Program-made: the position numbers and the translations under genes | Source of the DNA: Eledone cirrhosa | Lineage: Eukaryota | Assembly (NCBI GenBank): GCA_964016885.1 | Contig: OZ024741.1 | Location: 358,732,001-358,796,000 of the forward strand | Direction of reading: 5' to 3' | DNA length: 64,000 nt | Part shown: in pieces, positions 2,482 to 58,889 of the stretch | Numbering within the stretch: the first letter of the stretch is position 1 | How the letters are laid out: every line of letters starts with the position of its first letter | Notes under the pieces: generated by a model | Database searches by the model: none | What the model saw: only the letters and a program-made list of their open reading frames with translations | Told to the model about the DNA's origin: nothing

Positions 2482-2516
<35 letters not shown>

Positions 2517-7355: not shown

Positions 7356-7390
<35 letters not shown>

Positions 7391-10300: not shown

Positions 10301-10476
10301 ATACACTATATATATATGATCAGCAGTTGATGTCTGTACTACCTGCTAACATATATTTATATACACTATATATATGATCAGCAGTTAACATCTGTACTAC
10401 CTGCTAACATATGTACATATACAATATATATCTATGATCAGAAGTTGATGTCTGTACTACCTGCTAACATATGTAT
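63..10476. repeat. ~60-bp satellite array, block 1
   Basis: Tandem monomer GATCAGCAGTTAACATCTGTACTACCTGCTAACATATGTACATATACAC(TA)n with variable TA-run length; contains a ~4.9-5.0 kb tandem duplication (identical ORFs at 2445/7319 and 3742/8616, offset 4874). Confidence 0.98.
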
Positions 10477-11211
10477 CATCATCATCATCAGGTTTAGCGT
10501 CCGTGTTCCACGCTTGCATGGGTTTGGACGGGGGTTTTCCCACTTGAGGCAAGAGTGGTTGTCTTGCTCGCATAGGACTGTCTGGCGGGTTTTCTACAGT
10601 TGGTTGCCCTTCCTAACACCAACCACATTTACAGTGTGGGGCTGGGAGGTTTTTACCGTGTTGCCTACACGGCCACATTACAGTGTGGACTGTCTGGCGG
10701 GTTTTCTACAGCTGGATGCCCTTCCTAACACCAACCACATTTACAGTGTGGGGCTGGGAGGTTTTTAACGTGTTGCCTACACGGCCACATTTACAGCGTG
10801 GACTGTGTGTTTTTTGTCGTGACACCTACACGATCTCATTTGTTTCGGCCTGGATGTTGTGGGACCAACATAACTTTACATTGAAAGGGGCGGTGTGGGT
10901 GGGGTGGAGGTGGTGGGACGGGAGTGTGTTTTGATAGAGATGCCTACTGACTGTAGTAGGTTTTTACTTTGTATTTAGGTAAGGCGGGTCTTCTCTATTA
11001 CTGAGTACCGCCAAAGGTCTCGGTCCAGTGACATTGTCTTGGAGAGGTGTAAGCGTGTGAGGTCGGAATTTATCAGCTCGTCCCATGTTTTTCTGGGTCT
11101 GCCTACTCCGTGGCTACCGTCTATCTTTATTGCCCTGCACTTTGTTATACAGCTGTCGTCTTTCATGCGCATCACGTGACCGTACCAACGTAGCCTTCTC
11201 TCGAGTAAACA
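10477..11211 (-). mobile_element. 5'-truncated RTE-clade LINE (ORF C-terminus, 3' UTR, (TGA)n tail)
   Basis: Minus strand reads ERRLRWYGHVMRM...GRPRKTWDELINSDL...DRDLWR, typical of the RTE ORF C-terminus; (CAT)n at 10477-10490 is the 3' tail; ~112-bp tandem repeat in the 3' UTR (starts 10575, 10687, 10800); the satellite monomer resumes at 11212. Confidence 0.9.
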
Positions 11212-14200: not shown

Positions 14201-16840
14201 TATGTACATATACACTATATATATATATATATGATCAGCAGTTAAAATCTGTACTACCTGCTAACATATGTACATATACACTATATATATATCTATGATC
14301 AGCAGTTAACGTCTGTACTACCTGCTAACATATGTACATATACACTATATATATATATATATGATCAGCAGTTAAAATCTGTACTACCTGCTAACATATG
14401 TAAATATACACTATATATATATGATCAGCAGTTAACATCTGTACTACCTGCTAACATATGTACATATACACTATATATCTATGAACAGCAGTTAATGTCT
14501 GTACTACCTGCTAACATATGTACATATACACTATATATATATGATCAGCAATTAATGTCTGTACTACCTACTAACATATGTACATATACACTATATATAT
14601 GATCAGCAGTTAACATCTGTACTACCGGCTAACATATGTACATATACACTATATATATGATCAGCAGTTAACATCTGTACTACCTGCTAACATATGTACA
14701 TATACACTATATATATATGATCAGCAGTTAACGTCTGTACTACCTGCTAACATATGTATATGTACACTATATATATATGATCAGCAGGTAACATCTGTAC
14801 TACCTGCTAACATATGTACATATACACTATATATATGATCAGCAGTTAACATCTGTACTACCTGCTAACATATGTACATATACACTATATATATATGATC
14901 AGCAGTTAATGTCTGTACTAACTGCTAACATATGTATATATACACTATATATATATGATCAGCAGTTAACATCTGTACTACCTGCTAACATATGTATATA
15001 TACACTATATATATATGATCAGCAGTTGATGTCTGTACTACCTGCTAACATATATTTATATACACTATATATATGATCAGCAGCTAACATATGTACATAT
15101 ACAATATTTATCTATGATCAGAAGTTGATGTCTGTACTACCTGCTAACATATGTATATATACACTCTATATATATATATATATATGATCAGCAGTTAACA
15201 TTTGTACTACCTGCTAACATATATTTATATACACTATATATATGATCAGCAGCTAACATATGTACAAATACAATATTTATCTATGATCAGAAGTTGATGT
15301 CTGTACTACCTGCTAACATATGTATATATACACTCTATATATATATATATATATATGATCAGCAGTTAACATCTGTATTACCTGCTAACATATGTACATA
15401 TACACTATATATATGATCAACAGTTAACATCTGTACTACCTGCTAACATATGTACATATACACTATATATATATATATGATCAGCAGTTAACGTCTGTAC
15501 TACCTGCTAACATATGTATATGTACACTATATATATATGATCAGCAGGTAACATCTGTACTACCTGCTAACATATGTACATATACACTATATATATGATC
15601 AGCAGTTAACATCTGTACTACCTGCTAACATATGTACATATACACTATATATATATGATCAGCAGTTAATGTCTGTACTAACTGCTAACATATGTATATA
15701 TACACTATATATATATGATCAGCAGTTAACATCTGTACTACCTGCTAACATATGTATATATACACTATATATATATGATCAGCAGTTGATGTCTGTACTA
15801 CCTGCTAACATATATTTATATACACTATATATATGATCAGCAGCTAACATATGTACATATACAATATTTATCTATGATCAGAAGTTGATGTCTGTACTAC
15901 CTGCTAACATATGTATATATACACTCTATATATATATATATATATGATCAGCAGTTAACATCTGTACTACCTGCTAACATATGTACATATACACTATATA
16001 TATATGATCAGCAGTTAACATCTGTACTACCTGCTAACATATGTACATATACACTATATATATATGATCAGCAGTTAACGTCAGTACTACCTGCTAACAT
16101 ATGTACATATACACTATATATATATATATGATCACCAGTTAATGCCTGTACTACCTGCTAACATATGTACATATACACTATATATATGATCAGCAGTTAA
16201 CATCTGTACTACCTGCTAACATATGTACATATACACTATATATATGATCAGCAGTTAATGTCTGGACTAACTGCTAACATATGTACATATACACTATATA
16301 TATGATCAGCAGTTAACATCTGTACTACCTGCTAACATATGTACATATACACTATATATATATGATCAGCAGTTAATGTCTGTACTAACAGCTAACGTAT
16401 GTATATATACACTATATATATATGATCAGCAGTTAACATCTGTACTACCTGCTAACATATGTACATATACACTATATATTTTATATGATCAGCAGTTAAC
16501 ATCTGTACTACCTGCTAACATATGTATATATACACTATATATATATGATCAGCAGTTGATGTCTGTACTACCTGCTAACATATATTTATATACACTATAT
16601 ATATGATCAGCAGTTAACATCTGTACTACCTGCTAACATATGTACATATACAATATATATCTATGATCAGAAGTTGATGTCTGTACTACCTGCTAAGATA
16701 TGTATATATACACTATATATATATATATATATATATGATCAGCAGTTAACATCTGTACTACCTGCTAACATATGTACATATACAATATATATCTATGATC
16801 AGAAGTTGATGTCTGTACTACCTGCTAACATATGTATATA
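11212..16840. repeat. ~60-bp satellite array, block 2
   Basis: Same monomer; 1280-bp duplication (ORFs 12000/13280); 19-bp-deleted monomers (CAGCAGCTAACAT) near 15081, 15251 and 15841. Confidence 0.98.
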
Positions 16841-17795
16841 CTAGACATGAAAAATGCGCAAGCTCAAAAGTGCCACAGAATGTTATAATAAACCTTCAAA
16901 AGTGTGGGACTAGAGTTGTTGCTAAAAAATATTGTAATCATTATACATCGTACATTCTGTGGCATCCTTTATAAAAATAGCTTAAACCAACGAAGCCTTT
17001 ATTTTTACGCTATTTCACTTAGTTAATTCTTAGAGTGTAACATATAAAAATATCATTTACAACTATAAAATAAATTAATTAATATAATAACAGAGCTGCG
17101 GAGCTGAAATTTAGGAAATAATGGAGTATCGGATCCTGAGTTGGAGCCAGTCAATTTTTGGCCGACTCCGCAGCCCTGTATAATACATTTCATATTAAAG
17201 TTATTAATAAACCTATTTTACACTTCATGCAAATTACCACGAGATATTGATATTAGATATAAGATACAGCGCAATATCTACAGCTGTAAAAGTACGAAAG
17301 CGAAGTAATAATAAATGGCTTAAGGTAATTCCAATATGAAAGTTTGTAGTGATAAAAATTTGATAATGCAATACGATTGTTAATATTATAGTTCGATGAA
17401 AATGTAACAATAGATAACTAAATTATTTTACTATTAGTATATTTAAGAAATTATCATTATAGATTTGATCGTTCATATAAGCATCATATTAAGTTTCAAC
17501 ACAATTATTTTGTTACTATGAGTATATGATAATAATATTACGTAATTATTTATAGCTGTTATTACATTAAACATAGATGTATTTATTTTTATATGTTACA
17601 CTCTAAGAATTAACTAAGTGAAATAGCGTAAAAATAAAGGCTTCGTTGGTTTAAGCTATTTTTATAAAGGATGCCACAGAATGTACGATATATAATGATT
17701 ACAATATTTTTTAGCAACAACTCTAGTCCCACACTTTTGAAGGTTTATTATAACATTCTGTGGCACTTTTGAGCTTGCGCATTTTTCATGTCTAG
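16841..17795. repeat. 212-bp inverted repeat (955-bp foldback)
   Basis: 16841-17052 is the reverse complement of 17584-17795 with one mismatch seen; both outer ends are CTAG. Confidence 0.95.
17091..17178. mobile_element. Tiny hAT-like MITE relic
   Basis: TIRs CAGAGCTGCGGAG / CTCCGCAGCCCTG; 8-bp flanks TATAATAA / TATAATAC (7/8 match) fit an hAT-type TSD. Confidence 0.65.
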
Positions 17796-18389
17796 TTTAA
17801 TATTTTTTTAAGGCAACGCTTGTAATAACTCTAGTTAAACAGGATATATATTAATAATAAATTATCGTTGTAATGTAATTAGATTATGTAATTGTTATTA
17901 TAAATTATCTTATAAATATTAGTGTAAGATGTATAAAAATATTTTCAGACTTTTAATATAAACAACTACAAAAAACAATCAATATTAAATCAATATATTA
18001 TACATAATAGAAAACATAAAATATACAATACAAAAACAAAATATTTACATACAATTGCAATTATCAGTGTATATACATTTTCTTTATATTCCCTGAGCAA
18101 ATTAATAAGATTTGTTTTTATTGTACATAATTTGATGACTTGTTGGAGTGTATTAAAAGATAGCAACAATTTGTGATTAAATTGTTATCTTAAGCAACTC
18201 ACTTTTTAATAGTTGTTGGCTGAGCGAAATTGTAAAAGCCTATGAGCAAATATAAAAAAAAATACACAAACAACATTTCCTTGTGTTATTACAACATTAG
18301 ATAAAATAATTGAGCAATGTCGTTATATTTTGCTCTTATTGCACATTAATAGTGTTTCTATTTTTCGGCACAAATCCATTACGGCAGTC

Positions 18390-18520
18390 CATTACTGGTA
18401 CTTTATTTTATCGAATTAGTAAGTATGAAAGTCGAAGTTAACCTCGGCAGGATTTGAACTTAGAATGCAAAGGACCATAACAATACTGCAAAGCATGGTG
18501 TCTGACGCTCTACCAATACT
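18390..18520 (-). mobile_element. tRNA-derived SINE fragment inside the Helitron-like element (second fragment at ~19325-19372)
   Basis: ACTGGTACTTTATTTTATCGA...GGATTTGAACT is the reverse complement of the SINE at 61785-62007, including the B-box GAGTTCAAATCC. Confidence 0.8.
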
Positions 18521-18913
18521 TGTGTTGAGCTGGTCATTAATTTATGGTGGTCGTGCGTGGAGTAGAGCAATCGCTAGTTGAAATATTATGAACAAAACAT
18601 TTTTATTTGCCGAAGAACATATTTTCAATACTGTTTGTGAATGTGACGAAGGAAATACATTCTGATATGGAACAGTGTACAAAGTGTGTCTGTGAATAAC
18701 ATAATGTTACCTCATGTTGTTGTCAAGACATAATGGATTTCGTATATCCAGTTAGAAGATGAAACCTAGCCATCTCGGATTAGTTATATTTCATGCCATG
18801 TGTAAACGTGTTTGAGGATAGCAAAATATGCGCGTTAATTATAATAATTAGTTAATAATATTACAAAATATACCTAATTAAACTCTTTGCTTGAAATTTT
18901 ATCATTCTTCGTT

Positions 18914-18962
<49 letters not shown>

Positions 18963-19735
18963 TTATCTAGTCCTTCGCTCAAGATTAATCTATAAGTTTA
19001 GATGTTTGCCTTCGTTTAAGTAAATATTACAGTAAGATTTTTAATATAAACAACTACAAAAAACAATTAATATTAAAACGGAAAAATTATCAATGATAAA
19101 AGAAGCGGATGCAACTTTTTTTTTTATAAAGTTATATTCCTGTTTCTTTAAAGAACATTTCATTTTTGTTCTATTGTAGGCGAAATAATGCAATGGTTTA
19201 ATAGGGAAGATATAACTTACGAATTATGTCTCTAACCGTGTAACGCTTTTTAAGTAGATAACTACAATTGAAAATACTAAAGAAATGGAACCAACAATTC
19301 AATTTGAAAGTCGTCTAGTGACAGTGTATTACTGGTACTTTATTTTATCGACCCCGTAACGATGAAAGGCAAAAATGCAAATGCTTAAAATTTAAATTGC
19401 CTTAATTCTATCGTCTGCTGTTTCATTAAAGGGAGATTATCGTCTGTATTTAATTCTATCGTCTACTGTTCCACTAAACAGATATACCTCCACTATCGTC
19501 TCTATTTATACATTTTAACTTATAACTTATACACATTTGATTTGAAATATTTTATCTAGTCCCCCCTCTCAATATTATGATGATTTCTTTCGAATGAAAC
19601 AGTTCTAGTCCTGTAGAAACCATTTATATATATAATTGAACTGAGTTAAAAATTCACAATATTTATAATTAAATAAGCTCATATATATATGTGTGTATTT
19701 ATCTGTTTATTGTATTATATATAATGTGTGTATAT

Positions 19736-19775
19736 ACAGGATGTCCCCCAAAAATATATACACACTTCAACAGCA
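19736..19775 (+). mobile_element. Possible solo Tc1/mariner-type TIR end
   Basis: TA-CAGGATGTCCCCCAAAAATATATACACACTT resembles CAGGGTGTCCCA-type mariner TIRs; no partner end found. Confidence 0.35.
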
Positions 19776-20310
19776 TTCTAATAACTATTGCCTGTACAGG
19801 TAATCAAAGTGTCAATCGAATGTTAGTTTCGTGTTTTAACAGTACAAATTTACAATACACACATAAAACCAGTGTATATACATACATGAGTGTGTATACA
19901 CATACATGAATGTGTATATACAATATATATGTATATATATATAGACACATATATTCACGGTGCAACGGTACATTAAAATATAGATGCGGGAGAGGGGGGG
20001 GTGTATATATAGGGGCGCTGGGGATAAAGGAGTGTAAAGCGTGTGTAATTGATATATTGAAGGAGAGGAGCGTGCAGCGATAGAGTAACAAATATATAGA
20101 GAGGGGGAGAGATGGTATTGAAGGGGAGGAGTGCAAAGCGAAAGAGTAAGAGATATATATAGAGACGGAACAGATAGAGAGAAACAGGCGTAAGTAACAG
20201 TGGAAGAGATATAGAGAGAGGTACTCTGATTGGTTGAAAATTAGCCAATGACATACGATCACCACCACCACGGCTATCCCCGAAAAATTTTTTAAGAAGC
20301 TACGCATATA

Positions 20311-20365
20311 TGTTAGAACGCGAAAAGTGAACATTCTGTTGTTTCACACTTTTCGTGTTCTAACA
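20311..20365. other. 19-bp-stem hairpin at the 5' end of the Helitron-like element
   Basis: TGTTAGAACGCGAAAAGTG (20311-20329) pairs with CACTTTTCGTGTTCTAACA (20347-20365), one mismatch, 17-nt loop. Confidence 0.9.
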
Positions 20366-20367
20366 GA

Positions 20368-23300
20368 TACACTCTATATATATATATATATATATATGAT
20401 CAGCAGTTAACGTCTGTAATACCTGCTAACATATGTACATATACACTATATATATATGATCAGCAGTTGATGTCTGTACTACCTGCTAACATATGTACAT
20501 ATACATTATATATATATGATCAGCAGTTAACGTCTGTACTACCTGCTAACATATGTATATATACACTATATAAATATGATCAGCAGTTAACATCTGTACT
20601 ACCTGCTAACATATGTACATATACACTATATATATATGATCAGCAGTTAACGTCTGTACTACCTGCTAACATATGTACATATACACTATATATATATGAT
20701 CAGCAGTTAACATCTGTACTACCTGCTAACATATGTACATATACACTATATATATATATATGATCAGCAGTTAATGCCTGTACTACCTGCTAACATATGT
20801 ACATATACACTATATATATATATATGATCAGCAGTTAACATCTGTACTACCTGCTAACATATGTACATATACACTATATATATATGATCAGCAGTTAACA
20901 TCTGTACTACCTGCTAACATATGTACATATACACTATATATATATGATCAGCAGTTAACGTCTGTACTACCTGCTAACATATGTACATATACACTATATA
21001 TATATATATATGATCACCAGTTAATGCCTGTACTACCTGCTAACATATGTACATATACACTATATATATATGATCAGCAGTTAACGTCTGTACTACCTGC
21101 TAACATATGTATATATACACTGTATATATATGATCAGCAGTTAACATCTGTACTACCTGCTAACATATGTACATATACACTATATATATATATATGATCA
21201 GCAGTTAATGTCTGTACTACCTGCTAACATATGTACATATACACTATATATATATATGATCAGCAGTTAATGTCTGTACTACCTGCTAACATATGTACAT
21301 ATACACTATATAAATATGATCAGCAGTTAACATCTGTACTACCTGCTAACATATGTACATATACACTATATATATATGATCAGCAGTTAACATCTGTACT
21401 ACCTGCTAACATATGTACATATACACTATATATATATATATGATCAGCAGTTAACATCTGTACTACCTGCTAACATATGTACATATACACTATATATCTA
21501 TGATCAGCAGTTAATGTCTGTACTACCTGCTAACATATGTACATATACACTATATATATATGATCAGCAGTTAATGTCTGTACTACCTACTAACATATGT
21601 ACATATACACTATATATATGATCAGCAGTTAACATCTGTACTACCTGCTAACATATGTACATATACACTATATATATATGATCAGCAGTTAACATCTGTA
21701 CTACCTGCTAACATATGTACATATACACTATATATATGATCAGCAGTTAACATCTGTACTACCTGCTAACATATGTATATATACACTATATATATATATG
21801 ATCAGCAGTTAACGTCTGTACTACCTGCTAACATATGTATATGTACACTATATATATATGATCAGCAGTTAACATCTGTACTACCTGCTAACATATGTAC
21901 ATATACACTATATATATATATGATCAGTAGTTAATGTCTGTACTACCTGCTAACATATGTACATATACACTATATATATATATATGATCAGCAGTTAACA
22001 TCTGTACTACCTGCTAACATAGGTACATATACACTATATATATGATCAGCTGTTAACATCTGTACTACCTGCTAACATATGTACATATACACTATATATA
22101 TATGATCAGTAGTTAATGTCTGTATTACCTGCTAGCATATGTACATATACACTATATATATATATATGATGAGCAGTTAACATCTGTACTACCTGCTAAC
22201 ATATGTATATGTACACTATATATATATGATCAGCAGTTAACGTCTGTACTACCTGCTAACATATGTACATATACACTATATATATATGATCAGCAGTTAA
22301 CATCTGTACTACCTGCTAACATATGTACATATACACTATATATATATGATCAGCAGTTAACGTCTGTACTACCTGCTAACATATGTACATATACACTATA
22401 TATATATATATATGATCACCAGTTAATGCCTGTACTACCTGCTAACATATGTACATATACACTATATATATATGATCAGCAGTTAACGTCTGTACTACCT
22501 GCTAACATATGTATATATACACTGTATATATATGATCAGCAGTTAACATCTGTACTACCTGCTAACATATGTACATATACACTATATATATATATATGAT
22601 CAGCAGTTAATGTCTGTACTACCTGCTAACATATGTACATATACACTATATATATATATGATCAGCAGTTAATGTCTGTACTGCCTGCTAACATATGTAC
22701 ATATACACTATATAAATATGATCAGCAGTTAACATCTGTACTACCTGCTAACATATGTACATATACACTATATATATATGATCAGCAGTTAACATCTGTA
22801 CTACCTGATAACATATGTACATATACACTATATATATATGATCAGCAGTTAACATCTGTACTACCTGCTAACATATGTACATATACACTATATATCTATG
22901 ATCAGCAGTTAATGTCTGTACTACCTGCTAACATATGTACATATACACTATATATATATGATCAGCAGTTAATGTCTGTACCACCTACAAACATATGTAC
23001 ATATACACTATATATATGATTAGCAGTTAACATCTGTACTACCTGCTAACATATGTACATATACACTATATATATGATCAGCAGTTAACATCTGTACTAC
23101 CGGCTAACATATGTACATATACACTATATATATGATCAGCAGTTAACATCTGTACTACCTGCTAACATATGTACATATACACTATATATATATGATCAGC
23201 AGTTAACGTCTGTACTACCTGCTAACATATGTACATATACACTATATATATGATCAGCAGTTAACATCTGTACTACCTGCTAACATATGTATATATACAC

Positions 23301-23673
23301 TATATATATATATGATCAGCAGTTAACGTCTGTACTACCTGCTAACATATGTATATGTACACTATATATATATTATCAGCAGTTAACATCTGTACTACCT
23401 GCTAACATATGTACATATACACTATATATATATGATCAGTAGTTAATGTCTGTACTACCTGCTAACATATGTACATATACACTATATATATATATATGAT
23501 CAGCAGTTAACATCTGTACTACCTGCTAACATATGTACATATACACTATATATATGATCAGCTGTTAACATCTGTACTACCTGCTAACATATGTACATAT
23601 ACACTATATATATATGATCAGTAGTTAATGTCTGTATTACCTGCTAGCATATGTACATATACACTATATATAT
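20368..23673. repeat. ~60-bp satellite array, block 3
   Basis: Same monomer; ~1.4-1.5 kb internal duplication (ORFs 21231/22633). Confidence 0.98.
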
Positions 23674-24498
23674 TTAGAAACACACAGATACATGCGGACA
23701 CACACATATATACATGAATGCATCCGCACCCAACTGTGAGTTAAGGGTGCCAACTTCACCGATGTTGCTCAATGAATGACTGGGACAGACCAATTCAGTT
23801 TGAACCAGACTGAACCAGTATCAGAGTTAAAAATACATTATGAAGAGAGAAGAAACATTTAGATATAATTAGTAATAAAATGTATCATACCTAAACTGTT
23901 CCTAAATTCCTCGATTACGTAGTTTCGTGGCATAAACAAAAACAATATATCAAAGATATAGAGTCCTTGCGAGGTCGGCCGACTTATCAAGAGGATACCT
24001 CATTTTACTAGTCTCAAGAACGCGTCTACACGACGTGAGAAAGAATCCCAAAAGGCGGAGGGGGAGACGGTCACGCGATATAACGGTCGAGAAACAGAGC
24101 TAAGCCTCTTATAACCACGAAGAAAATACCACGGAGGCGGAGGGGGCATTCATATCGAGGCCGTAGAAGAGGTAGTGAAGAAGGCGAGAAGTATGAGTAA
24201 TGGAAGCTTTCCAGTTGTCCCCACACTTCAAAGATTGCTCGACCAGAGGGAGTTATTAATATATTTAGAAACACACAGATACATGCGGACACACACATAT
24301 ATACATGAATGCATCCGCACCCAACTGTGAGTTAAGGGTGCCAACTTCACCGATGTTGCTCAATGAATGACTGGGACAGACCAATTCAGTTTGAACCAGA
24401 CTGAACCAGTATCAGAGTTAAAAATACATTATGAAGAGAGAAGAAACATTTAGATATAATTAGTAATAAAATGTATCATACCTAAACTGTTCCTAAAT

Positions 24499-24586
24499 TC
24501 CTCGACTACGTAGTTTCGTGGCATAAACAAAAACAATATATCAAAGATATAGAGTCCTTGCGAGGTCTGCCGACTTATCAAGAGGA
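24499..24586 (-). ncRNA. Type I hammerhead ribozyme, U3-A8 variant (minus-strand copies also at 23908-23995, 25090-25177 and 25681-25768)
   Basis: Reverse complement of the 26218-26305 motif; the 23908 copy has a stem III point change and the 25681 copy a stem I point change. Confidence 0.75.
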
Positions 24587-26217
24587 TGCCTCATTTTACT
24601 AGTCTCAAGGACGCGTCTACACGACGTGAGAAAGAATCCCAAAAGGCGGAGGGGGAGACGGTCACGCGATATAACGGTCGAGAAACAGAGCTAAGCCTCT
24701 TATAACCACGAAGAAAATACCACGGAGGCGGAGGGGGCATTCATATCGAGGCCGTAGAAGAGGTAGTGAAGAAGGCGAGAAGTATGAGTAATGGAAGCTT
24801 TCCAGTTGTCCCCACACTTCAAAGATTGCTCGACCAGAGGGAGTTATTAATATATTTAGAAACACACAGATACATGCGGACACACACATATATACATGAA
24901 TGCATCCGCACCCAACTGTGAGTTAAGGGTGCCAACTTCACCGATGTTGCTCAATGAATGACTGGGACAGACCAATTCAGTTTGAACCAGACTGAACCAG
25001 TATCAGAGTTAAAAATACATTATGAAGAGAGAAGAAACATTTAGATATAATTAGTAATAAAATGTATCATACCTAAACTGTTCCTAAATTCCTCGACTAC
25101 GTAGTTTCGTGGCATAAACAAAAACAATATATCAAAGATATAGAGTCCTTGCGAGGTCTGCCGACTTATCAAGAGGATACCTCATTTTACTAGTCTCAAG
25201 AACGCGTCTACACGACATGAGAAAGAATCCCAAAAGGCGGAGGGGGAGACGGTCACGCGATATAACGGTCGAGAAACAGAGCTAAGCCTCTTATAACCAC
25301 GAAGAAAATACCACGGAGGCGGAGGGGGCATTCATATCGAGGCCGTAGAAGAGGTAGTGAAGAAGGCGTGAAGTATGAGTAATGGAAGCTTTCCAGTTGT
25401 CCCCACACTTCAAAGATTGCTCGACCAGAGGGAGTTATTAATATATTTAGAAACACACAGATACATGCGGACACACACATATATACATGAATGCATCCGC
25501 ACCCAACTGTGAGTTAAGGGTGCCAACTTCACCGATGTTGCTCAATGAATGACTGGGACAGACCAATTCAGTTTGAACCAGACTGAACCAGTATCAGAGT
25601 TAAAAATACATTATGAAGAGAGAAGAAACATTTAGATATAATTAGTAATAAAATGTATCATACCTAAACTGTTCCTAAATTCCTGGACTACGTAGTTTCG
25701 TGGCATAAACAAAAACAATATATCAAAGATATAGAGTCCTTGCGAGGTCTGCCGACTTATCAAGAGGATACCTAATTTTACTAGTCTCAAGAACGCGTCT
25801 ACACGACGTGAGAAAGAATCCCAAAAGGCGGAGGGGGAGACGGTCACGCGATATAACGGTCGAGAAACAGAGCTAAGCCTCTTATAACCACGAAGAAAAT
25901 AACACGGAGGCGGAGGGGGCATTCATATCGAGGCCGTAGAAGAGGTAGTGAAGAAGGCGAGAAGTATGAGTAATGGAAGCTTTCCAGTTGTCCCCACATT
26001 TCAAAGCTTCCATTACTCATACTTCTCGCCTTCTTCACTACCTCTTCTACGGCCTCGATATGAATGCCCCCTCCGCCTCCGTGGTATTTTCTTCGTGGTT
26101 ATAAGAGGCTTAGCTCTGTTTCTCGACCGTTATATCGCGTGACCGTCTCCCCCTCCGCCTTTTGGGATTCTTTCTCACGTCGTGTAGACGCGTTCTTGAG
26201 ACTAGTAAAATGAGGTA

Positions 26218-26305
26218 TCCTCTTGATAAGTCGGCAGACCTCGCAAGGACTCTATATCTTTGATATATTGTTTTTGTTTATGCCACGAAACTACGTAGTC
26301 GAGGA
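26218..26305 (+). ncRNA. Type I hammerhead ribozyme, U3-A8 core variant (plus-strand copies also at 26809-26896 and 27400-27487)
   Basis: Stem I TCCTC/GAGGA; core TTGATAA (26223-26229); stem II GT(C)GGCA...TGCCAC; GAAA (26287-26290); palindromic stem III ACTACGTAGT; GUC site with predicted cleavage after 26300. The copy at 27400 has a U4G change (TGGATAA). Confidence 0.75.
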
Positions 26306-27559
26306 ATTTAGGAACAGTTTTGGTATGATACATTTTATTACTAATTATATCTAAATGTTTCTTCTCTCTTCATAATGTATTTTTAACTCTGATACTGGTT
26401 CAGTCTGGTTCAAACTGAATTGGTCTGTCCCAGTCATTCATTGAGCAACATCGGTGAAGTTGGCACCCTTAACTCACAGTTGGGTGCGGATGCATTCATG
26501 TATATATGTGTGTGTCCGCATGTATCTGTGTGTTTCTAAATATATTAATAACTCCCTCTGGTCGAGCAATCTTTGAAGTGTGGGGACAACTGGAAAGCTT
26601 CCATTACTCATACTTCTCGCCTTCTTCACTACCTCTTCTACGGCCTCGATATGAATGCCCCCTCCGCCTCCGTGGTATTTTCTTCGTGGTTATAAGAGGC
26701 TTAGCTCTGTTTCTCGACCGTTATATCGCGTGACCGTCTCCCCCTCCGCCTTTTGAGATTCTTTCTCACGTCGTGTAGACGCGTTCTTGAGACTAGTAAA
26801 ATGAGGTATCCTCTTGATAAGTCGGCAGACCTCGCAAGGACTCTATATCTTTGATATATTGTTTTTGTTTATGCCACGAAACTACGTAGTCGAGGAATTT
26901 AGGAACAGTTTAGGTATGATACATTTTATTACTAATTATATCTAAATGTTTCTTCTCTCTTCATAATGTATTTTTAACTCTGATACTGGTTCAGTCTGGT
27001 TCAAACTGAATTGGTCTGTCCCAGTCATTCATTGAGCAACATCGGTGAAGTTGGCACCCTTAACTCACAGTTGGGTGCGGATGCATTCATGTATATATGT
27101 GTGTGTCCGCATGTATCTGTGTGTTTCTAAATATATTAATAACTCCCTCTGGTCGAGCAATCTTTGAAGTGTGGGGACAACTGGAAAGCTTCCATTACTC
27201 ATACTTCTCGCCTTCTTCACTACCTCTTCTACGGCCTCGATATGAATGCCCCCTCCGCCTCCGTGGTATTTTCTTCGTGGTTATAAGAGGCTTAGCTCTG
27301 TTTCTCGACCGTTATATCGCGTGACCGTCTCCCCCTCCGCCTTTTGGGATTCTTTCTCACGTCGTGTAGACGCGTTCTTGAGACTAGTAAAATGAGGTAT
27401 CCTCTGGATAAGTCGGCAGACCTCGCAAGGACTCTATATCTTTGATATATTGTTTTCGTTTATGCCACGAAACTACGTAGTCGAGGAATTTAGGAACAGT
27501 TTAGGTATGATACATTTTATTACTAATTATATCTAAATGTTTCTTCTCTCTTCATAATG

Positions 27560-28585
27560 TATACACTATATATATATATATGATGAGCAGTTAACATCTG
27601 TACTACCTGCTAACATATGTATATGTACACTATATATATATGATCAGCAGTTAACGTCTGTACTACCTGCTAACATATGTACATATACACTATATATATA
27701 TGATCAGCAGTTAACATCTGTACTACCTGCTAACATATGTACATATACACTATCTCTATGATCAGCAGTTAACGTATGTACTACCTGCTAACATATGTAC
27801 ATATACACTATATATATATGATCAGCAGTTAACATCTGTACTACCTGCTAACATATGTACATATACACTATATATATGATCAGCAGTTAACATCTGTACT
27901 ACCTGCTAACATAGGTACATATACACTATATATATATATGATCAGCAGTTAACATCTGTACTACCTGCTAACATATGTACATATACACTATATATATACA
28001 TGATCAGCAGTTAACGTCTGTACTACCTGCTAACATATGTACATATACACTATATATATGATTAGCATTTAACATCTGTGCTACCTGCTAACATATGTAC
28101 ATATACACTATATATATATATATGATCAGCAGTTAATGTCTGTACTACCTGCTAACATATGTATATATACACTATATATATATGATCAGCAGTTAATATC
28201 TGTACTACCTGCTAACATATGTACATATACACTATATATAAATGAACAGCAGTTAACATCTGTACTACCTGCTAACATATGTACATATACACTATATATA
28301 TGATCAGCAGTTAACATCTGTACTACCTGCTAACTTATGTACATATACACTATATATATGATCAGCAGTTAATGTCTGTACTACCTGCTAACATATGTAT
28401 ATATACACTATATATATATGATCAGCAGTTAATGTCTGTACTACCTGCTAACATATGTACATATACACTATATATATATGATCAGCAGTTAACATCTGTA
28501 CTACCTGCTAACATATGTACATATACACTATATATATATAATCAGCAGTTAACGTCTGTACTACCTGCTAACATATGTATATATA

Positions 28586-28620
<35 letters not shown>

Positions 28621-31600
28621 CAGCAGTTAACGTCTGTACTACCTGCTAACATTTGTACATATACACTATATATATATGATCAGCAGTTAACATCTGTACT
28701 ACCTGCTATCATATGTACATATACACTATATATATATGATTAGCAGTTAATGCCTGTACTACCTGCTAACATATGTACATATACACTATATATATATGAT
28801 CAGCAGTTAATGCCTGTACTACCTGCTAACATATGTACATATACACTATATATATATGATCAGCAGTTAATGCCTGTACTACCTGCTAACATATGTACAT
28901 ATACACTATATATATATGATGAGCAGTTAATGTCTGTACTACCTGCTAACATATGTACATATACACTATATATATATATGATCAGCAGTTAACATCTGTA
29001 CTACCTGCTAACATATGTACATATACACTATATATATATGATCAGCAGTTAATGTCTGTACTACCTGCTAACATATGTATATATACACTATATATATATA
29101 TATATGATGAGCAGTTAACATCTGTACTACCTGCTAACATATGTATATATACACTACATATATATGATCAGCAGTTAACGTCTGTACTACCTGCTAACAT
29201 ATTTACATATACACTATATATATGATCAGCAGTTAACATCTGTACTACCTGCTAACATATGTACATATACACTATATATATATATATATAATCAGCAGTT
29301 AATGTCTGTACTAACTGCTAACATATGTACATATACACTATATATATATGATCAGCAGTTAACATATGCACTACCTGCTAACATATGTACATATACACTA
29401 TATATATATGATCAGCAGTTAATGTATGTACTACCTGCTAGCACATGTACATATACACTATATATATATGATCAGCAGTTAACATCTGTACTACCTGCTA
29501 ACATATGTACATATACACTATATCTATGATCAGCAGTTAACGTCTGTACTACCTGCTAACATATGTACATATACACTATATATATATGATTAGCAGTTAA
29601 TGTCTGTACTACCTGCTAACATATGTACATATACACTATATATATGATCAGCATTTAACATCTGTACTACCTGCTAACATATGTACATATACACTATATA
29701 TATATGATCAGCAGTTAATGCCTGTACTACCTGCTAACATATGTACATATACACTATATATATATGATCAGCAGTTAATGTCTGTACTACCTGCTAATAT
29801 ATGTACATATACACTATATATATATGATCAGCAGTTAACATCTGTGCTACCTGCTAACATATGTACATATACACTATATATATATGATCATCGGTTAACA
29901 TCTGTACTACCTGCTAACATATGTACATATACACTATATATATATGATCAGCAGTTAACATCTGTACTACCTGCTAACATATGTACATATACACTATATA
30001 TATATGATCATCAGTTAACATCTGTACTACCTGCTAAGATATGTACATATACACTATATATATATGATCAGCTGTTAACGTCTGTACTACATGCTAACAT
30101 ATGTACATATACACTATATATATATGATCAGCAGTTAACATCTGTACTACCTGCTAACATATGTACATATACACTATATATATATGATCAGCAGTTAATG
30201 CCTGTACTACCTGCTAACATATGTACATATACACTATATATATATGATCAGCAGTTAATGCCTGTACTACCTGCTAACATATGTACATATACACTATATA
30301 TATATGATGAGCAGTTAATGTCTGTACTACCTGCTAACATATGTACATATACACTATATATATATGATCAGCAGTTAACATCTGTACTACCTGCTAACAT
30401 ATGTACATATACACTATATATATATGATCAGCAGTTAATGTCTGTACTACCTGCTAACATATGTATATATACACTATATATATATATATATGATGAGCAG
30501 TTAACATCTGTACTACCTGCTAACATATGTATATATACACTACATATATATGATCAGCAGTTAACGTCTGTACTACCTGCTAACATATTTACATATACAC
30601 TATATATATGATCAGCAGTTAACATCTGTACTACATGCTTACATAGGTATATATACACTATATATATATGATCAGCAGTTAACGTCTGTACTACCTGCTA
30701 ACATATGTACATATACACTATATATATATATATATAATCAGCAGTTAATGTCTGTACTAACTGCTAACATATGTACATATACACTATATATATATGATCA
30801 GCAGTTAACATATGCACTACCTGCTAACATATGTACATATACACTATATATATATGATCAGCAGTTAATGTATGTACTACCAGCTAGCACATGTACATAT
30901 ACACTATATATATATGATCAGCAGTTAACATCTGTACTACCTGCTAACATATGTACATATACACTATATCTATGATTAGCAGTTAACGTCTGTACTACCT
31001 GCTAACATATGTACATATACACTATATATATATGATCAGCAGTTAATGTCTGTACTACCTGCTAACATATGTACATATACACTATATATATGATCAGCAT
31101 TTAATATCTGTACTACCTGCTAACATATGTACATATACACTATATATATATGATCAGCAGTTAATGCCTGTACTACCTGCTAACATATGTACATATACAC
31201 TATATATATATGATCAGCAGTTAATGTCTGTACTACCTGCTAACATATGTACATATACACTATATATATATGATCAGCAGTTAATGTCTGTACTACCTGC
31301 TAATATATGTACATATACACTATATATATATGATCAGCAGTTAACATTTGTGCTACCTGCTAACATATGTACATATACACTATATATATATGATCATCAG
31401 TTAACATCTGTACTACCTGCTAACATATGTACATATACACTATATATATATGATTAGCATTTAACATCTGTACTACCTGCTAACATATGTACATATACAC
31501 TATATATATATGATCAGCAGTTAACGTCTGTACTACCTGCTAACATATGTACATATACACTATATATATATATGTGATCAGCACTTAATGTCTGTACTAC

Positions 31601-34600
31601 CTGCTAACATATGTACATATACACTATATATATGATCAGCAGTTAACGTCTGTACTACCTGCTAACATATGTACATATACACTATATATATATGATCAGC
31701 AGTTAACATCTGTACTACCTGCTAACATATGTACATATACACTATATATATATGATCAGCAGTTAACATCTGTACTACCTGCTAACATATGTACATATAC
31801 ACTATATATATATGATTAGCAATTAACATATGTACTACCTGCTAACATATGTACATATACACTATATATATGATCAGCAGTTAATGTCTGTACTACCTGC
31901 TAGCATATGTACATATACACTATATATATATGATCAGCAGTTAATGTCTGTACTACCTGCTAACATATGTACATATACACTATATATATGATCAGCAGTT
32001 AATGTCTGTACTAACTGCTAACATATGTACATATACACTATATATATATGATCAGCAGTTAACATCTGTACTACCTGCTAACATATGTACATATACACTA
32101 TATATATATATGATTAGCATTTAACATCTGTACTACCTGCTAACATATGTACATATACACTATATATATATGATCAGCAGTTAACGTCTGTACTACCTGC
32201 AAACATATGTACATATACACTATATATATATATATGATCAGCAGTTAATGTCTGTACTACCTGCTAACATATGTACATATACACTATATATATGATCAGC
32301 AGTTAATGTCTGTACTACCTGCTAACATATGTATATATACGCTATATATATATATGATCAGCAGTTAACGTCTGTACTACCTGCTAACATATTACATATA
32401 CACTATATATATATATATGATCAGCAGTTAATGTCTGTACTACCTGCTAACATATGTACATATACACTATATATATATGATCAGCAGTTGACATCTGTAC
32501 TACCTGCTAACATATGTATATATACACCATATATATATGATCAGCAGTTAACATCTGTACTACCTGCTAACATATGTACATATACACTATATATATATAT
32601 ATGATCAGCAGTTAATGTCTGTACTACCTGCTAACATATGTACATATACACTATATATATGATCAGCAGTTAATGTCTGTACTACCTGCTAACATATGTA
32701 CATATACACTATATATATATGATCAGCAGTTAACATCTGTACTACATGCTAACATATGTACATATACACTATATATATATGATTAGCAGTTAACATCTGT
32801 ACTACCTGCTAACATGTGTACATATACACTATATATATATATATGATCAGCAGTTAATGTCTGTACTACCTGCTAACATATGTACATATACACTATATAT
32901 CTATGATCAGCAGTTAATGTCTTTACTACCTGCTAACATATGTACATATACACTATATATATATGATTAGCAGTTAATGTGTGTACTACCTGCTAACATA
33001 TGTACATATACACTATATATATATATATGATCAGCAGTTAACATCTGTACTACCTGCTAACATATGTATATATACACTATATATATATGATCAGCAATTA
33101 ACATCTGTACTACCTGCTAACATATGTACATATACACTATATATATATGATTAGCAGTTAATGTGTGTCCTACCTGCTAACATATATATATATACACTAT
33201 ATATATATGATCAGCAGTTAACATTTGTACTACCTGCTAACATATGTACATATACACTATATATATATGATTAGCAGTTAATGTGTGTCCTACCTGCTAA
33301 CATATATATATATACACTATATATATATGATCAGCATTTAACATCTGTACTACCTGCTAACATATGTACATATACACTATATATATATATGATCAGCAGT
33401 TAACGTCTGTACTACCTGCTAACATATGTACATATACACTATATATATATATGTGATCAGCAGTTAATGTCTGTACTACCTGCTAACATATGTACATATA
33501 CACTATATATATGATCAGCAGTTAACGTCTGTACTACCTGCTAACATATGTACATATACACTATATATATATGATCAGCAGTTAACATCTGTACTACCTG
33601 CTAACATATGTACATATACACTATATATATATGATTAGCAGTTAACATATGTACTACCTGCTAACATATGTACATATACACTATATATATGATCAGCAGT
33701 TAATGTCTGTACTACCTGCTAGCATATGTACATATACACTATATATATATGATCAGCAGTTAATGTCTGTACTACCTGCTAACATATGTACATATACACT
33801 ATATATATGATCAGCAGTTAATGTCTGTACTAACTGCTAACATATGTACATATACACTATATATCTATGATCAGCAGTTAATGCCTGTACTACCTGCTAA
33901 CATATGTACATATAAACTATATATATATGATCAGCAGTTAATGTCTGTAATACCTGCCAACATATGTACATATACACTATATATATATGATCAGCAGTGA
34001 ATATCTGTACTACCTGCTAACATATGTACACATACACTATATATATATGATCAGCAGTTAACATCTGTACTAACTGCTAACATATGTACATATACACTAT
34101 ATATATATGATCAGCAGTTAACATCTGTACTACCTGCTAACATATGTATATATACACTATATATATATATATGATCAGCAGTTAACATCTGTACTACCTG
34201 CTAACATATGTATATATACGCTATATATATATATGATCAGCAGTTAACGTCTGTACTACCTGCTAACATAGTACATATACACTATATATATATATATGAT
34301 CAGCAGTTAATGTCTGTACTACCTGCTAACATATGTACATATACACTATATATATATGATCAGCAGTTAACATCTGTACTACCTGCTAACATATGTATAT
34401 ATACACCATATATATATGATCAGCAGTTAACATCTGTACTACCTGCTAACATATGTACATATACACTATATATCTATGATCAGCAGTTAACGTCTGTACT
34501 ACCTGCTAACATATGTACATATACACTATATATATATATATGATCAGCAGTTAACATCTGTACTACCTGCTAACATATGTACATATACACTATATATATA

Positions 34601-37600
34601 TGATCAGCAGTTAACATCTGTACTACCTGCTAACATATGTATATATACACTATATATATATGATCAGCAATTAACATCTGTACTACCTGCTAACATATGT
34701 ACATATACACTATATATATATGATTAGCAGTTAATGTGTGTACTACCTGCTAACATATGTACATATACACTATATATATATATATGATCAGCAGTTAACA
34801 TCTGTACTACCTGCTAACATATGTATATATACACTATATATATATGATCAGCAATTAACATCTGTACTACCTGCTAACATATGTACATATACACTATATA
34901 TATATGATTAGCAGTTAATGTGTGTCCTACCTGCTAACATATATATATATACACTATATATATATGATCAGCAGTTAACACTTGTACTACCTGCTAACAT
35001 ATGTACATATACACTATATATATATGATTAGCATTTAACATCTGTACTACCTGCTAACATATGTACATATACACTATATATATATGATCAGCAGTTAACG
35101 TCTGTACTACCTGCTAACATATGTACATATACACTATATATATATATGTGATCAGCAGTTAATGTCTGTACTACCTGCTAACATATGTACATATACACTA
35201 TATATATGATCAGCAGTTAACGTCTGTACTACCTGCTAACATATGTACATATACACTATATATATATGATCAGCAGTTAACATCTGTACTACCTGCTAAC
35301 ATATGTACATATACACTATATATATATGATCAGCAGTTAACATCTGTACTACCTGCTAACATATGTACATATACACTATATATATATGATTAGCAATTAA
35401 CATATGTACTACCTGCTAACATATGTACATATACACTATATATATGATCAGCAGTTAATGTCTGTACTACCTGCTAGCATATGTACATATACACTATATA
35501 TATATGATCAGCAGTTAATGTCTGTACTACCTGCTAACATATGTACATATACACTATATATATGATCAGCAGTTAATGTCTGTACTAACTGCTAACATAT
35601 GTACATATACACTATATATATATGATCAGCAGTTAACATCTGTACTACCTGCTAACATATGTACATATACACTATATATCTATGATCAGCAGTTAATGCC
35701 TGTACTACCTGCTAACATATGTACATATACACTATATATATATGATCAGCAGTTAATGTCTGTAATACCTGCTAACATATGTACATATACACTATATATA
35801 TATGATCAGCAGTGAATATCTGTACTACCTGCTAACATATGTACACATACACTATATATATATGATCAGCAGTTAACATCTGTACTAACTGCTAACATAT
35901 GTACATATACACTATATATATATGATCAGCAATTAACATCTGTACTACCTGCTAACATATGTATATATACACTATATATATATATATATGATCAGCAGTT
36001 AACATCTGTACAACCTGCTAACATATGTATATATACGCTATATATATATATGATCAGCAGTTAACGTCTGTACTACCTGCTAACATATTACATATACACT
36101 ATATATATATATATGATCAGCAGTTAATGTCTGTACTACCTGCTAACATATGTACATATACACTATATATATATGATCAGCAGTTAACATCTGTACTACC
36201 TGCTAACATATGTATATATACGCTATATATATATATGATCAGCAGTTAACGTCTGTACTACCTGCTAACATATTACATATACACTATATATATATATATG
36301 ATCAGCAGTTAATGTCTGTACTACCTGCTAACATATGTACATATACACTATATATATATGATCAGCAGTTAACATCTGTACTACCTGCTAACATATGTAT
36401 ATATACACCATATATATATGATCAGCAGTTAACATCTGTACTACCTGCTAACATATGTACATATACACTATATATATATATATGATCAGCAGTTAATGTC
36501 TGTACTACCTGCTAACATATGTACATATACACTATATATATGATCAACAGTTAATGTCTGTACTACCTGCTAACATATGTACATATACACTATATATATA
36601 TGATCAGCAGTAAACATCTGTACTACATGCTAACATATGTACATATACACTATATATATATGATTAGCAGTTAACATCTGTACTACCTGCTAACATGTGT
36701 ACATATACACTATATATATATATATGATCAGCAGTTAATGTCTGTACTACCTGCTAACATATGTACATATACACTATATATCTATGATCAGCAGTTAATG
36801 TCTTTACTACCTGCTAACATATGTACATATACACTATATATATATGATTAGCAGTTAATGTGTGTACTACCTGCTAACATATGTACATATACACTATATA
36901 TATATATATGATCAGCAGTTAACATCTGTACTACCTGCTAACATATGTATATATACACTATATATATATGATCAGCAATTAACATCTGTACTACCTGCTA
37001 ACATATGTACATATACACTATATATATATAATTAGCAGTTAATGTGTGTCCTACCTGCTAACATATATATATATACACTATATATATATGATCAGCAGTT
37101 AACATTTGTACTACCTGCTAACATATGTACATATACACTATATATATATGATTAGCATTTAACATCTGTACTACCTGCTAACATATGTACATATACACTA
37201 TATATATATGATGAGCAGTTAACGTCTGTACTACCTGCTAACATATGTACATATACACTATATATATATATGTGATCAGCAGTTAATGTCTTTACTACCT
37301 GCTAACATATGTACATATACACTATATATATGATCAGTAGTTAACGTCTGTACTACCTGCTAACATATGTACATATACACTATATATATATGATCAGCAG
37401 TTAACATCTGTACTACCTGCTAACATATGTACATATACACTATATATATATGATCAGCAGTTAACATCTGTACTACCTGCTAACATATGTACATATACAC
37501 TATATATATATGATTAGCAGTTAACATATGTACTACCTGCTAACATATGTACATATACACTATATATATGATCAGCAGTTAATGTCTGTACTACCTGCTA

Positions 37601-40600
37601 GCATATGTACATATACACTATATATATATGATCAGCAGTTAATGTCTGTACTACCTGCTAACATATGTACATATACACTATATATATGATCAGCAGTTAA
37701 TGTCTGTACTAACTGCTAACATATGTACATATACACTATATATATATGATCAGCAGTTAACATCTGTACTACCTGCTAACATATGTACATATACACTATA
37801 TATCTATGATCAGCAGTTAATGCCTGTACTACCTGCTAACATATGTACATATACACTATATATATATGATCAGCAGTTAATGTCTGTAATACCTGCCAAC
37901 ATATGTACATATACACTATATATATATGATCAGCAGTGAATATCTGTACTACCTGCTAACATATGTACACATACACTATATATATATGATCAGCAGTTAA
38001 CATCTGTACTAACTGCTAACATATGTACATATACACTATATATATATGATCAGCAGTTAACATCTGTACTACCTGCTAACATATGTATATATACACTATA
38101 TATATATATATGATCAGCAGTTAACATCTGTACTACCTGCTAACATATGTATATATACGCTATATATATATATGATCAGCAGTTAACGTCTGTACTACCT
38201 GCTAACATAGTACATATACACTATATATATATATATGATCAGCAGTTAATGTCTGTACTACCTGCTAACATATGTACATATACACTATATATATATGATC
38301 AGCAGTTAACATCTGTACTACCTGCTAACATATGTACATATACACTATATATATATGATCAGCAGTTAACGTCTGTACTACCTGCTAACATATGTACATA
38401 TACACTATATATATATATATGATCAGCAGTTAACATCTGTACTACCTGCTAACATATGTACATATACACTATATATATATGATCAGCAGTTAACATCTGT
38501 ACTACCTGCTAACATATGTATATATACACTATATATATATGATCAGCAATTAACATCTGTACTACCTGCTAACATATGTACATATACACTATATATATAT
38601 GATTAGCAGTTAATGTGTGTACTACCTGCTAACATATGTACATATACACTATATATATATATATGATCAGCAGTTAACATCTGTACTACCTGCTAACATA
38701 TGTATATATACACTATATATATATGATCAGCAATTAACATCTGTACTACCTGCTAACATATGTACATATACACTATATATATATGATCAGCAGTTAACAT
38801 CTGTACTACCTGCTAACATATGTATATATACACTATATATATATGATCAGCAGTTAACATCTGTACTACCTGCTAACATATGTACATATACACTATATAT
38901 ATATGATCAGCAGTTAACATCTGTACTACCTGCTAACATATGTACATATACACTATATATATATGATTAGCAGTTAACATATGTACTACCTGCTAACATA
39001 TGTACATATACACTATATATATGATCAGCAGTTAATGTCTGTACTACCTGCTAGCATATGTACATATACACTATATATATATGATCAGCAGTTAATGTCT
39101 GTACTACCTGCTAACATATGTACATATACACTATATATATGATCAGCAGTTAATGTCTGTACTAACTGCTAACATATGTACATATACACTATATATATAT
39201 GATTAGCAGTTAATGTGTGTACTACCTGCTAACATATGTACATATACACTATATATATATATATGATCAGCAGTTAACATCTGTACTACCTGCTAACATA
39301 TGTATATATACACTATATATATATGATCAGCAATTAACATCTGTACTACCTGCTAACATATGTACATATACACTATATATATATAATTAGCAGTTAATGT
39401 GTGTCCTACCTGCTAACATATATATATATACACTATATATATATGATCAGCAGTTAACATTTGTACTACCTGCTAACATATGTACATATACACTATATAT
39501 ATATGATTAGCATTTAACATCTGTACTACCTGCTAACATATGTACATATACACTATATATATATGATGAGCAGTTAACGTCTGTACTACCTGCTAACATA
39601 TGTACATATACACTATATATATATATGTGATCAGCAGTTAATGTCTTTACTACCTGCTAACATATGTACATATACACTATATATATGATCAGCAGTTAAC
39701 GTCTGTACTACCTGCTAACATATGTACATATACACTATATATATATATATGATCAGCAGTTAACATCTGTACTACCTGCTAACATATGTACATATACACT
39801 ATATATATATGATCAGCAGTTAACATCTGTACTACCTGCTAACATATGTATATATACACTATATATATATGATCAGCAATTAACATCTGTACTACCTGCT
39901 AACATATGTACATATACACTATATATATATGATTAGCAGTTAATGTGTGTACTACCTGCTAACATATGTACATATACACTATATATATATATATGATCAG
40001 CAGTTAACATCTGTACTACCTGCTAACATATGTATATATACACTATATATATATGATCAGCAATTAACATCTGTACTACCTGCTAACATATGTACATATA
40101 CACTATATATATATGATCAGCAGTTAACATCTGTACTACCTGCTAACATATGTATATATACACTATATATATATGATCAGCAGTTAACATCTGTACTACC
40201 TGCTAACATATGTACATATACACTATATATATATGATCAGCAGTTAACATCTGTACTACCTGCTAACATATGTACATATACACTATATATATATGATTAG
40301 CAGTTAACATATGTACTACCTGCTAACATATGTACATATACACTATATATATGATCAGCAGTTAATGTCTGTACTACCTGCTAGCATATGTACATATACA
40401 CTATATATATATGATCAGCAGTTAATGTCTGTACTACCTGCTAACATATGTACATATACACTATATATATGATCAGCAGTTAATGTCTGTACTAACTGCT
40501 AACATATGTACATATACACAATATATATATGATCAGCAGTTAACATCTGTACTACCTGCTAACATATGTACATATACACTATATATCTATGATCAGCAGT

Positions 40601-58886: not shown

Positions 58887-58889
58887 TTG

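Follow-up and report, generated by a model that had tools for sequence, protein, structure and literature searches.

The octopus Eledone cirrhosa carries, in a 64,000-nt stretch of contig OZ024741.1 (positions 358,732,001 to 358,796,000, hereafter the window), an array of non-coding 591-bp units with a hammerhead ribozyme motif in each. The findings below indicate that this array is a single insertion of a high-copy, hammerhead-bearing repeat. Its two opposed arms were probably written by a borrowed Penelope-type enzyme, which would have cut both strands of a TA run and repeatedly copied one 591-nt RNA, itself probably circular. The element would thus most probably be a retrozyme of the kind without long terminal repeats (non-LTR), living as a non-autonomous parasite of Penelope and copied by rolling circle. 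An initial annotation of the window, made from the sequence, had described the array as a plain concatemer produced by rolling-circle copying of a 591-nt circular RNA. Repeated copying of one monomer is supported by the haplotypes and editing marks reported below, and the circle is presumed from them; the single concatemer had to be replaced by two opposed arms with two fixed start sites. Unit positions are numbered from window 26546-27136 (plus strand, RNA sense). The parts of the insertion are as follows.

67..48353, plus strand: host satellite of ~60 bp, in which a TA run was the insertion target
22146..22161, plus strand: empty site in a paralogous satellite stretch ~1.5 kb upstream
23658..23673, plus strand: left target duplication (7-16 bp), in part attributable to microhomology with terminus A
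23668..26009, minus strand: arm A, 3.96 units in tandem, with the minus strand as RNA sense; on the inside it stops at unit position ~23, on the outside at unit position 591, the fixed terminus A (...GTTTCTAAATATAT)
26003..26009, no strand: head-to-head inversion junction with a 7-nt overlap, AAAGCTT
26003..27562, plus strand: arm B, 2.64 units in tandem, with the plus strand as RNA sense; on the inside it stops at unit position 49, on the outside at unit position 426, the fixed terminus B (...CTTCATAATGTAT)
27560..27575, plus strand: right copy of the target duplication
26892..26971, plus strand: 80-nt segment between the cut site and terminus B of the reference unit c6, with a predicted long hairpin
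26972..27136, plus strand: 'tail' of unit c6, the 165 nt that separate terminus B from terminus A, with three predicted hairpins

The satellite of ~60-bp repeats was interrupted by a non-satellite block (23674-27559) made of seven unit pieces, four in one orientation and three in the opposite one. Together, 23668-27562 held 6.6 units of 591 bp with 98.8-100% identity, as annotated, and the hairpin words noted earlier (GCACCC-AACT/AGTT-GGGTGC, TGCGGA/TCCGCA and TTCAGT/ACTGAA) each occurred once per unit. Comparison with the empty satellite segment at 22146-22161, whose exact matches to the insertion flanks covered 97+42 bases (left) and 20+174 bases (right), fixed a target duplication of 7-16 bp (at most TATACACTATATATAT). 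Since this one duplication encloses the whole array, the array is one insertion, in agreement with the single event and the empty site proposed initially. The window pieces differed from the family majority at 15 of 3,902 bases, and the changes in arms A and B did not mirror each other. No stop-free frame in the array exceeded 96 aa, and an open reading frame (ORF) for reverse transcriptase (RT) plus GIY-YIG endonuclease, the mark of an autonomous Penelope-like element, was looked for in the repeating unit and not found, again as annotated.

We then determined how far this anatomy applied to the whole family. A 19-base hammerhead word had 7,681 exact matches in the 3.0-Gb genome (reversed control, 0), which, extrapolated from 48 loci among 100 matches listed, corresponds to roughly 3,700 loci. 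Copies formed a ladder of subfamilies, and an older subfamily, ~80% identical and with ~597-bp units, kept the layout unchanged; the 80-nt segment before terminus B was among the parts best conserved between subfamilies. In bare TA tracts, multi-unit arrays at 99% identity were the rule. We mapped 81 insertions: the window array, 38 best hits (biased toward young, full units), 40 from the first 100 word matches and two chance finds; with one insertion already in the set, the 40 represented 41 of the 48 loci among the first 100 matches listed, and locus L151 was taken out of order because it was the largest. Among the 50 inverted insertions, 45 ended at A on one side and B on the other, none had two A ends, one had two B ends (a nested insertion of two ages) and four carried an odd end. 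The 31 direct insertions ended at A (591) in 18 cases, at B (426) in 12 and elsewhere in one. The outer ends, initially read as falling mid-unit, are therefore two termini fixed across the family and 165 nt apart. Inner arm ends were scattered, with some excess at 495-545 (21 of 132, 11 expected). The targets were TA runs, with TATATATA lying within 24 nt in 187 of 223 flanks.

Two fixed 3' termini, an inverted 5' arm, 5' truncation and a (TA)n target are the features of a Penelope-like insertion, and dispersion in many copies without LTRs, flanked by a duplication longer than 4 bp, is that of a retrozyme. The word matches and the A+B termini of 45 of the 50 inverted insertions thus support the earlier suggestion of a dispersed, retrozyme-like element mobilised by Penelope. 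The family is not confined to this locus, and we regard it as highly improbable that the unit is simply the pseudo-LTR of a coding Penelope element. Such an origin would fit the Penelope-like footprint and the presence of U3-A8 hammerheads in Penelope untranslated regions (UTRs), both in this genome (P6, and degenerate in P2) and in Schistosoma Cercyon elements (PMC4209133; here and below, published systems are described from the parts of the cited papers that we cover). Against it, the unit directly follows itself in tandem in subfamilies ~20% apart, where the flanks of checked insertions ran into Penelope sequence, a TA tract or simple repeat mostly lay between, and the Penelope sequence was not a shared continuation, and a unit profile matched no UTR in the six Penelope families examined (P4 and P5 ends partly mapped).

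The unit carries a predicted hammerhead on the sense strand, a type I variant with helix I UCCUC/GAGGA, core UUGAUAA, GAAA, helix III and GUC, whose cut site would be GTAGTC^GAGGA, between unit positions 346 and 347. We assigned it by core boxes and helices and not by Rfam score; an Rfam search gave no hit at gathering score, and no hammerhead was among the 8 hits at E<=10. The core pair is U3-A8 (UUGAUAA and not CUGAUGA), a replacement of C3-G8 described as a Penelope hammerhead variant (PMC4209133), and helix II carries a 57-nt arm. The seven copies in the window were the following.

23908..23995, minus strand: hammerhead c1, damaged (G16.2>A and helix II A>C)
24499..24586, minus strand: hammerhead c2, intact, predicted cut 24504/24503
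25090..25177, minus strand: hammerhead c3, intact, predicted cut 25095/25094
25681..25768, minus strand: hammerhead c4, damaged (G1.1>C, first helix I pair broken)
26218..26305, plus strand: hammerhead c5, intact, predicted cut 26300/26301
26809..26896, plus strand: hammerhead c6, intact, predicted cut 26891/26892, with UCCUC/GAGGA helix I, UUGAUAA, long helix II, GAAA and palindromic ACUACGUAGU helix III
27400..27487, plus strand: hammerhead c7, damaged (U4>G)

Owing to the inversion at 26003-26009, the hammerheads are divided between the strands, four on the minus and three on the plus. The initial annotation had placed a complete hammerhead in every copy; the motif and its cut site hold for the unit, with the variant core, and the complete motif is present in four of the seven copies (c1, c4 and c7 being damaged). 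Intact units follow each other twice (c2-c3 and c5-c6), so that the two consecutive hammerheads, at least, expected of a retrozyme are present. Helix III is a 10-base palindrome predicted to be weak as a hairpin (+1.5 kcal/mol) and strong as a duplex (-12.9 kcal/mol), and dimeric cleavage is therefore the likely mode by analogy with published hammerheads (PMC4209133; PMC7229834). Across 15 copies spanning ~20% divergence, 97.6% of 209 hammerhead cells could pair, and one helix I pair covaried between subfamilies as U-A (7), U-G (3) and C-G (5). The core plus GTC was kept in 77 of 80 copies, which had been selected partly on that word.

The folding of the whole monomer pointed to the same strand. 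As a circle, the sense 591-nt monomer had a predicted fold with a z score of -6.0 relative to shuffles, and three old-subfamily monomers gave -4.3 to -5.8 in sense and +0.1 to -1.2 in antisense, consistent with the highly self-paired monomers of metazoan non-LTR retrozymes. Covariation outside the hammerhead was weak to modest: among 131 confidently predicted pairs, 99 were the same, 15 had changed on one side, 2 were compensatory and 15 were broken. Among the contigs of four sequencing runs, of RNA or DNA, X1 and X5 each contained one contig of 621 or 620 letters, some 30 longer than a unit, a length equally compatible with a circle and with a tandem.

In order to identify the template of each insertion, we compared unit haplotypes at 53 young loci. 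Sites 112 and 190 were polymorphic between insertions and never mixed within one (0 of 34 and 0 of 39), and site 468 was mixed within an insertion in 2 of 39. Full units differed by 1.2 bases within an insertion and by 3.4 between insertions. In arrays of at least three units, private variants were found in one unit (42) or in all units (6), and in some of the units once; private variants of an insertion were often present on both arms. L151 was the clearest example. Ten differences from the family majority were repeated in the covering units of both its arms. One of them is a common polymorphism; of the nine that remain, seven were A>G (p=0.0003 if a share of 0.2 is assumed; 0.02 when 69 loci are allowed for). 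One unrepeated difference in the outermost piece and two single-unit differences came in addition. A word containing three of the A>G changes had 7 genome matches, all within L151, and four of the seven changes were also present singly at other loci. The simplest reading of this one locus is that a single edited sense RNA was copied by both arms. The A>G polarity would favour a sense template, counter to the antisense self-priming model (PMC3846280).

These patterns bear on whether the array could have grown as DNA. In that explanation, which we consider very unlikely, one unit was inserted and then multiplied as ordinary satellites do, by slippage, unequal crossing-over or snap-back copying of an arm. 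The location of the array within a satellite, the mosaic variants seen in two arrays and the preference of Li et al. for local amplification (bioRxiv 10.64898/2026.07.22.740005) speak for it. It does not explain, however, why one duplication brackets the whole array, why the arms end at different fixed sites, why unit-private changes are not in mirror order or why multi-unit arrays at 99% identity are usual in bare TA tracts.

A template made of uncut multi-unit read-through transcripts from young, uniform arrays, with the hammerhead mostly a passenger, is also improbable in our view. Unprocessed RNA was the main in vitro substrate of the anole Penelope enzyme (PMC11167929), single-unit variants were common to two loci in 12 locus-cases, and the activity of the hammerhead is a prediction. 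Editing of a multimer, however, would hardly produce seven identical A>G changes in each unit of one private locus. Moreover, variants were all-or-one and not nested, the A and B arms overlapped in the template, and A arms did not end near site B, where linear twin priming predicts their ends. Without a monomer step, arrays could neither homogenise nor grow.

The 5' ends of the arms provided a further test of the template. For TA-joined 5' ends between positions 330 and 350, manual inspection assigned 100 of 125 matches to 35 loci, of which 34 remained once a duplicate had been merged. Of these 34 target-joined ends among the matches listed, 7 fell exactly at 347 and 14 within 347-349, an excess at the predicted cut site (p about 0.0001-0.0002) at a position, 347, without TA microhomology. 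Because 5' ends concentrate there, some templates appear to have ended at the cut. Most arms passed the cut site without a scar, as a ligated circle would permit, and only two changes at 347 were found among 149 pieces. The same parasite and enzyme could in principle have used the linear cut monomer, with the enzyme jumping from its 5' end to its 3' end in each round. Such jumps account for the uniform haplotypes and for the excess of 5' ends at the cut, but we judge them unlikely: the 346/347 junctions were nearly always clean, as seen in the near absence of changes at 347 and in the retention of core plus GTC (partly word-selected) noted above, and up to 11 exact rounds would be required.

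Altogether, the data are best explained by copying of a probably circular monomer, for which we propose the following cycle as likely. A genomic array would be transcribed and its hammerheads would release monomers, probably as dimers through the palindromic helix III, which a host ligase would close. A dimeric Penelope RT-endonuclease would then prime both strands of the break, one from site A and one from site B, which are separated by 165 nt. Each enzyme would circle the template for a variable length, mostly through the ligated cut site, and the two complementary DNA (cDNA) ends would be joined by microhomology, leaving the head-to-head junction and the short duplication. In a bolder version, in which we have somewhat less than even confidence, both enzymes of the dimer would work on a single sense circular RNA, sometimes carrying adenosine-to-inosine edits, and each would lap it up to 11 times. 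If true, this would demonstrate the circular intermediate that has been proposed for animal retrozymes and would settle both the polarity of the template and how the inverted ends of Penelope arise; coding Penelope tandems might then form in the same way; both the copying of animal retrozymes and the tandem and inverted ends of Penelope are open questions in the cited literature. Circle versus multimer, sense versus antisense and the identity of the helper can be tested directly in vitro, since the family is young, the non-coding template is short, the two start sites are exact to the base and the genome encodes several intact candidate enzymes.

Several observations weigh against copying of a cut and closed circle by a borrowed enzyme. 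Mosaic variants were present in two arrays (T555C in 3 of 11 units and T380G in 2 of 5). Among private all-unit variants of 69 loci, the excess of A>G over T>C was weak (6 vs 2, p=0.04), and three of the six A>G variants came from L151. In the 81-locus sample, whose bias toward intact hammerheads works against an excess at the cut site, 3 of 132 arm ends lay at 342-352, where 2.5 were expected. The negative UTR profile search described above gives no sequence link to a helper. For the hammerhead itself, covariation was found in only 1 of 14 pairs among sequences that are related, and the fold of lowest predicted energy differed from the active one (z -1.99, 9 of 200 shuffles). In published assays, cleavage by Penelope-type hammerheads is weak (PMC4209133), only one of 9 retrozyme dimers from Xenopus cleaved (bioRxiv 10.64898/2026.07.22.740005) and hammerhead mutants had no effect on insertion in vitro (PMC11167929). 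Cleavage and circularisation of the 591-nt RNA are predictions from sequence.

Three further observations concern the same arrays. In the 11-unit arm of L320-L321 (G000:C4:169490846-169498305), T555C occurred in units 2, 4 and 7 only; recurrent misreading of one template site, conversion and assembly are candidate causes. The inversion junction of L151 (4706-4764) contained several repeats of an 11-base piece of the unit, which suggests polymerase slippage during joining. Single-unit changes at first seemed strand-biased, with 17 T>C against 4 A>G, but stricter filters removed the bias (12 against 3, p=0.13, and 5 G>A against 6 C>T), and it was dropped.

We next searched for a helper among the Penelope families sampled from the genome. 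Copies with long open frames were present in at least five families, many copies in all, and the four mapped families had inverted two-terminus (TA)n layouts with termini spaced by 40 (P1), 41 (P2), 91 (P3) and 82 nt (P6). Two Penelope elements lie in the window.

54722..58155, minus-strand frame: P3 Penelope insertion with a 608-aa truncated frame (55831-57657)
58889..60987: P1 copy, 5'-truncated and broken, 95%

Both belong to active families with a matching insertion architecture, and neither has nucleotide homology to the unit, so their annotation as candidate helpers finds no support at that level. P3 is of the Hydra clade by its CxCX5C linker; its family ORF has 821 aa, its copies are 99-100% alike and its inverted two-terminus layout has a 91-nt tail. 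The window insertion carries a CUGAUGA hammerhead with a long helix II and a palindromic AUGCGCAU helix III. P1 has a 3,127-bp unit, an ~860-aa ORF, termini 40 nt apart, a minimal hammerhead-like motif and a linker without the CxxC of Neptune. The P2 hammerhead is degenerate, with GCAA in place of GAAA. P6, whose CX4CxxC linker is of the Neptune/Nematis type, resembles the unit in its U3-A8 core, its palindromic helix III, a first terminus 80 nt past the cut (like B) and similar last 12 bases. It is the best candidate helper on circumstantial grounds, its alignments to the unit (94 and 45 of 500) not being significant; the corresponding values were 29 and 65 for P2, 442 and 236 for P3, and 261 and 260 for P1. 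A version of the unit hammerhead with a short helix II had no match. Two candidate links were rejected: a likeness of the unit to the P1 5' UTR was not significant (153 of 1000 shuffles), and a direct unit-to-P6 junction in L127 was a chimera in which the P6 piece was a complete, older (90%) insertion.

When compared to published systems, the retrozyme class is already known, and what is added here is the two-site, two-arm anatomy, the 165-nt tail and genomic evidence for a single monomer template. Like metazoan non-LTR retrozymes (PMC7229834; bioRxiv 10.64898/2026.07.22.740005), the family consists of non-coding tandem units, each with a GC content under 50% and a type I hammerhead; it is dispersed in thousands of copies, has a long duplication and a strongly folded monomer, and coexists with Penelope. 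Its size, supposed earlier to be unusually large, is not unusual: published retrozymes span 51-972 bp, with a mean of 650 in ray-finned fish (Li, Clavereau & Pollet 2026, bioRxiv 10.64898/2026.07.22.740005). It differs in its two opposed arms and two fixed termini, not described in the covered parts of that literature, and in its Penelope-variant hammerhead (U3-A8, long helix II). Those papers, in the same parts, propose a single monomer template without showing it; the present evidence is genomic, the element being known from DNA.

Endonuclease-positive (EN+) Penelope elements typically insert into (TA)n, with a 5' copy that is inverted and a tail at one of the two ends (PMC8557442). The purified protein of Frangieh et al. 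2024 (PAc; PMC11167929), a predicted dimer, cuts and extends both strands, starting at two internal RNA sites whose distance is the Penelope tail. The present family shares with EN+ elements (PMC8557442; PMC3846280; PMC11167929) 5' truncation, partial tandems and an inverted 5' copy, as well as a tail confined to one end, insertion into (TA)n, duplications of 8-10 bp and two internal start sites downstream of the hammerhead. In contrast, it has no ORF, its arms reach 11 whole units and its tail measures 165 nt, compared with 30-40 nt in published elements and 40-91 nt in the coding families of this genome. Non-autonomous Chlamys elements such as MRC1 (PMC8557442) likewise parasitise Penelope and insert as several copies arranged head-to-tail. 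Their 3' sequence is common to them and their helper, and Chlamys generally have no canonical hammerheads, whereas here no helper homology was found in the six families and the hammerhead is conserved. The U3-A8 hammerheads of Cercyon and dimer-dependent type I hammerheads (PMC4209133) show the same core covariation, enlarged helix II and short palindromic helix III; the 57-nt helix II arm and the presence in every unit of a non-coding tandem are different here. A literature search, covering little of the subscription journals and no supplements, returned no paper on this family or on two-armed retrozyme insertions.

Other Penelope-related features were observed. P2, P4 and P5 (L232-L241, L272-L285) have a second long frame, of 420-500 aa, into which the beginning of the RT ORF extends, and their 3' UTRs are long and rich in microsatellites. 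Flanking repeats at L099, L236, L241, L272 and L273 contained other recurrent hammerhead motifs with CUGAAGA cores. Two short inverted or tandem pieces in TA runs of the window (54590-54710, with a CTGATGAAG hammerhead-like core on the minus strand, and 61024-61305) are probably the ends of other Penelope-type families, and a degraded Penelope-like RT remnant lies at 49940-50900 on the minus strand.

The window contains no tRNA gene. An AT-rich element resembling a miniature inverted-repeat transposable element (16837-17799), with 216-bp terminal inverted repeats at 99% identity, sits at the start of a 3.5-kb non-satellite block. A 738-bp insertion at 10476-11213 begins with (ATC)n and is likely the 3' end of a minus-strand long interspersed nuclear element (LINE).

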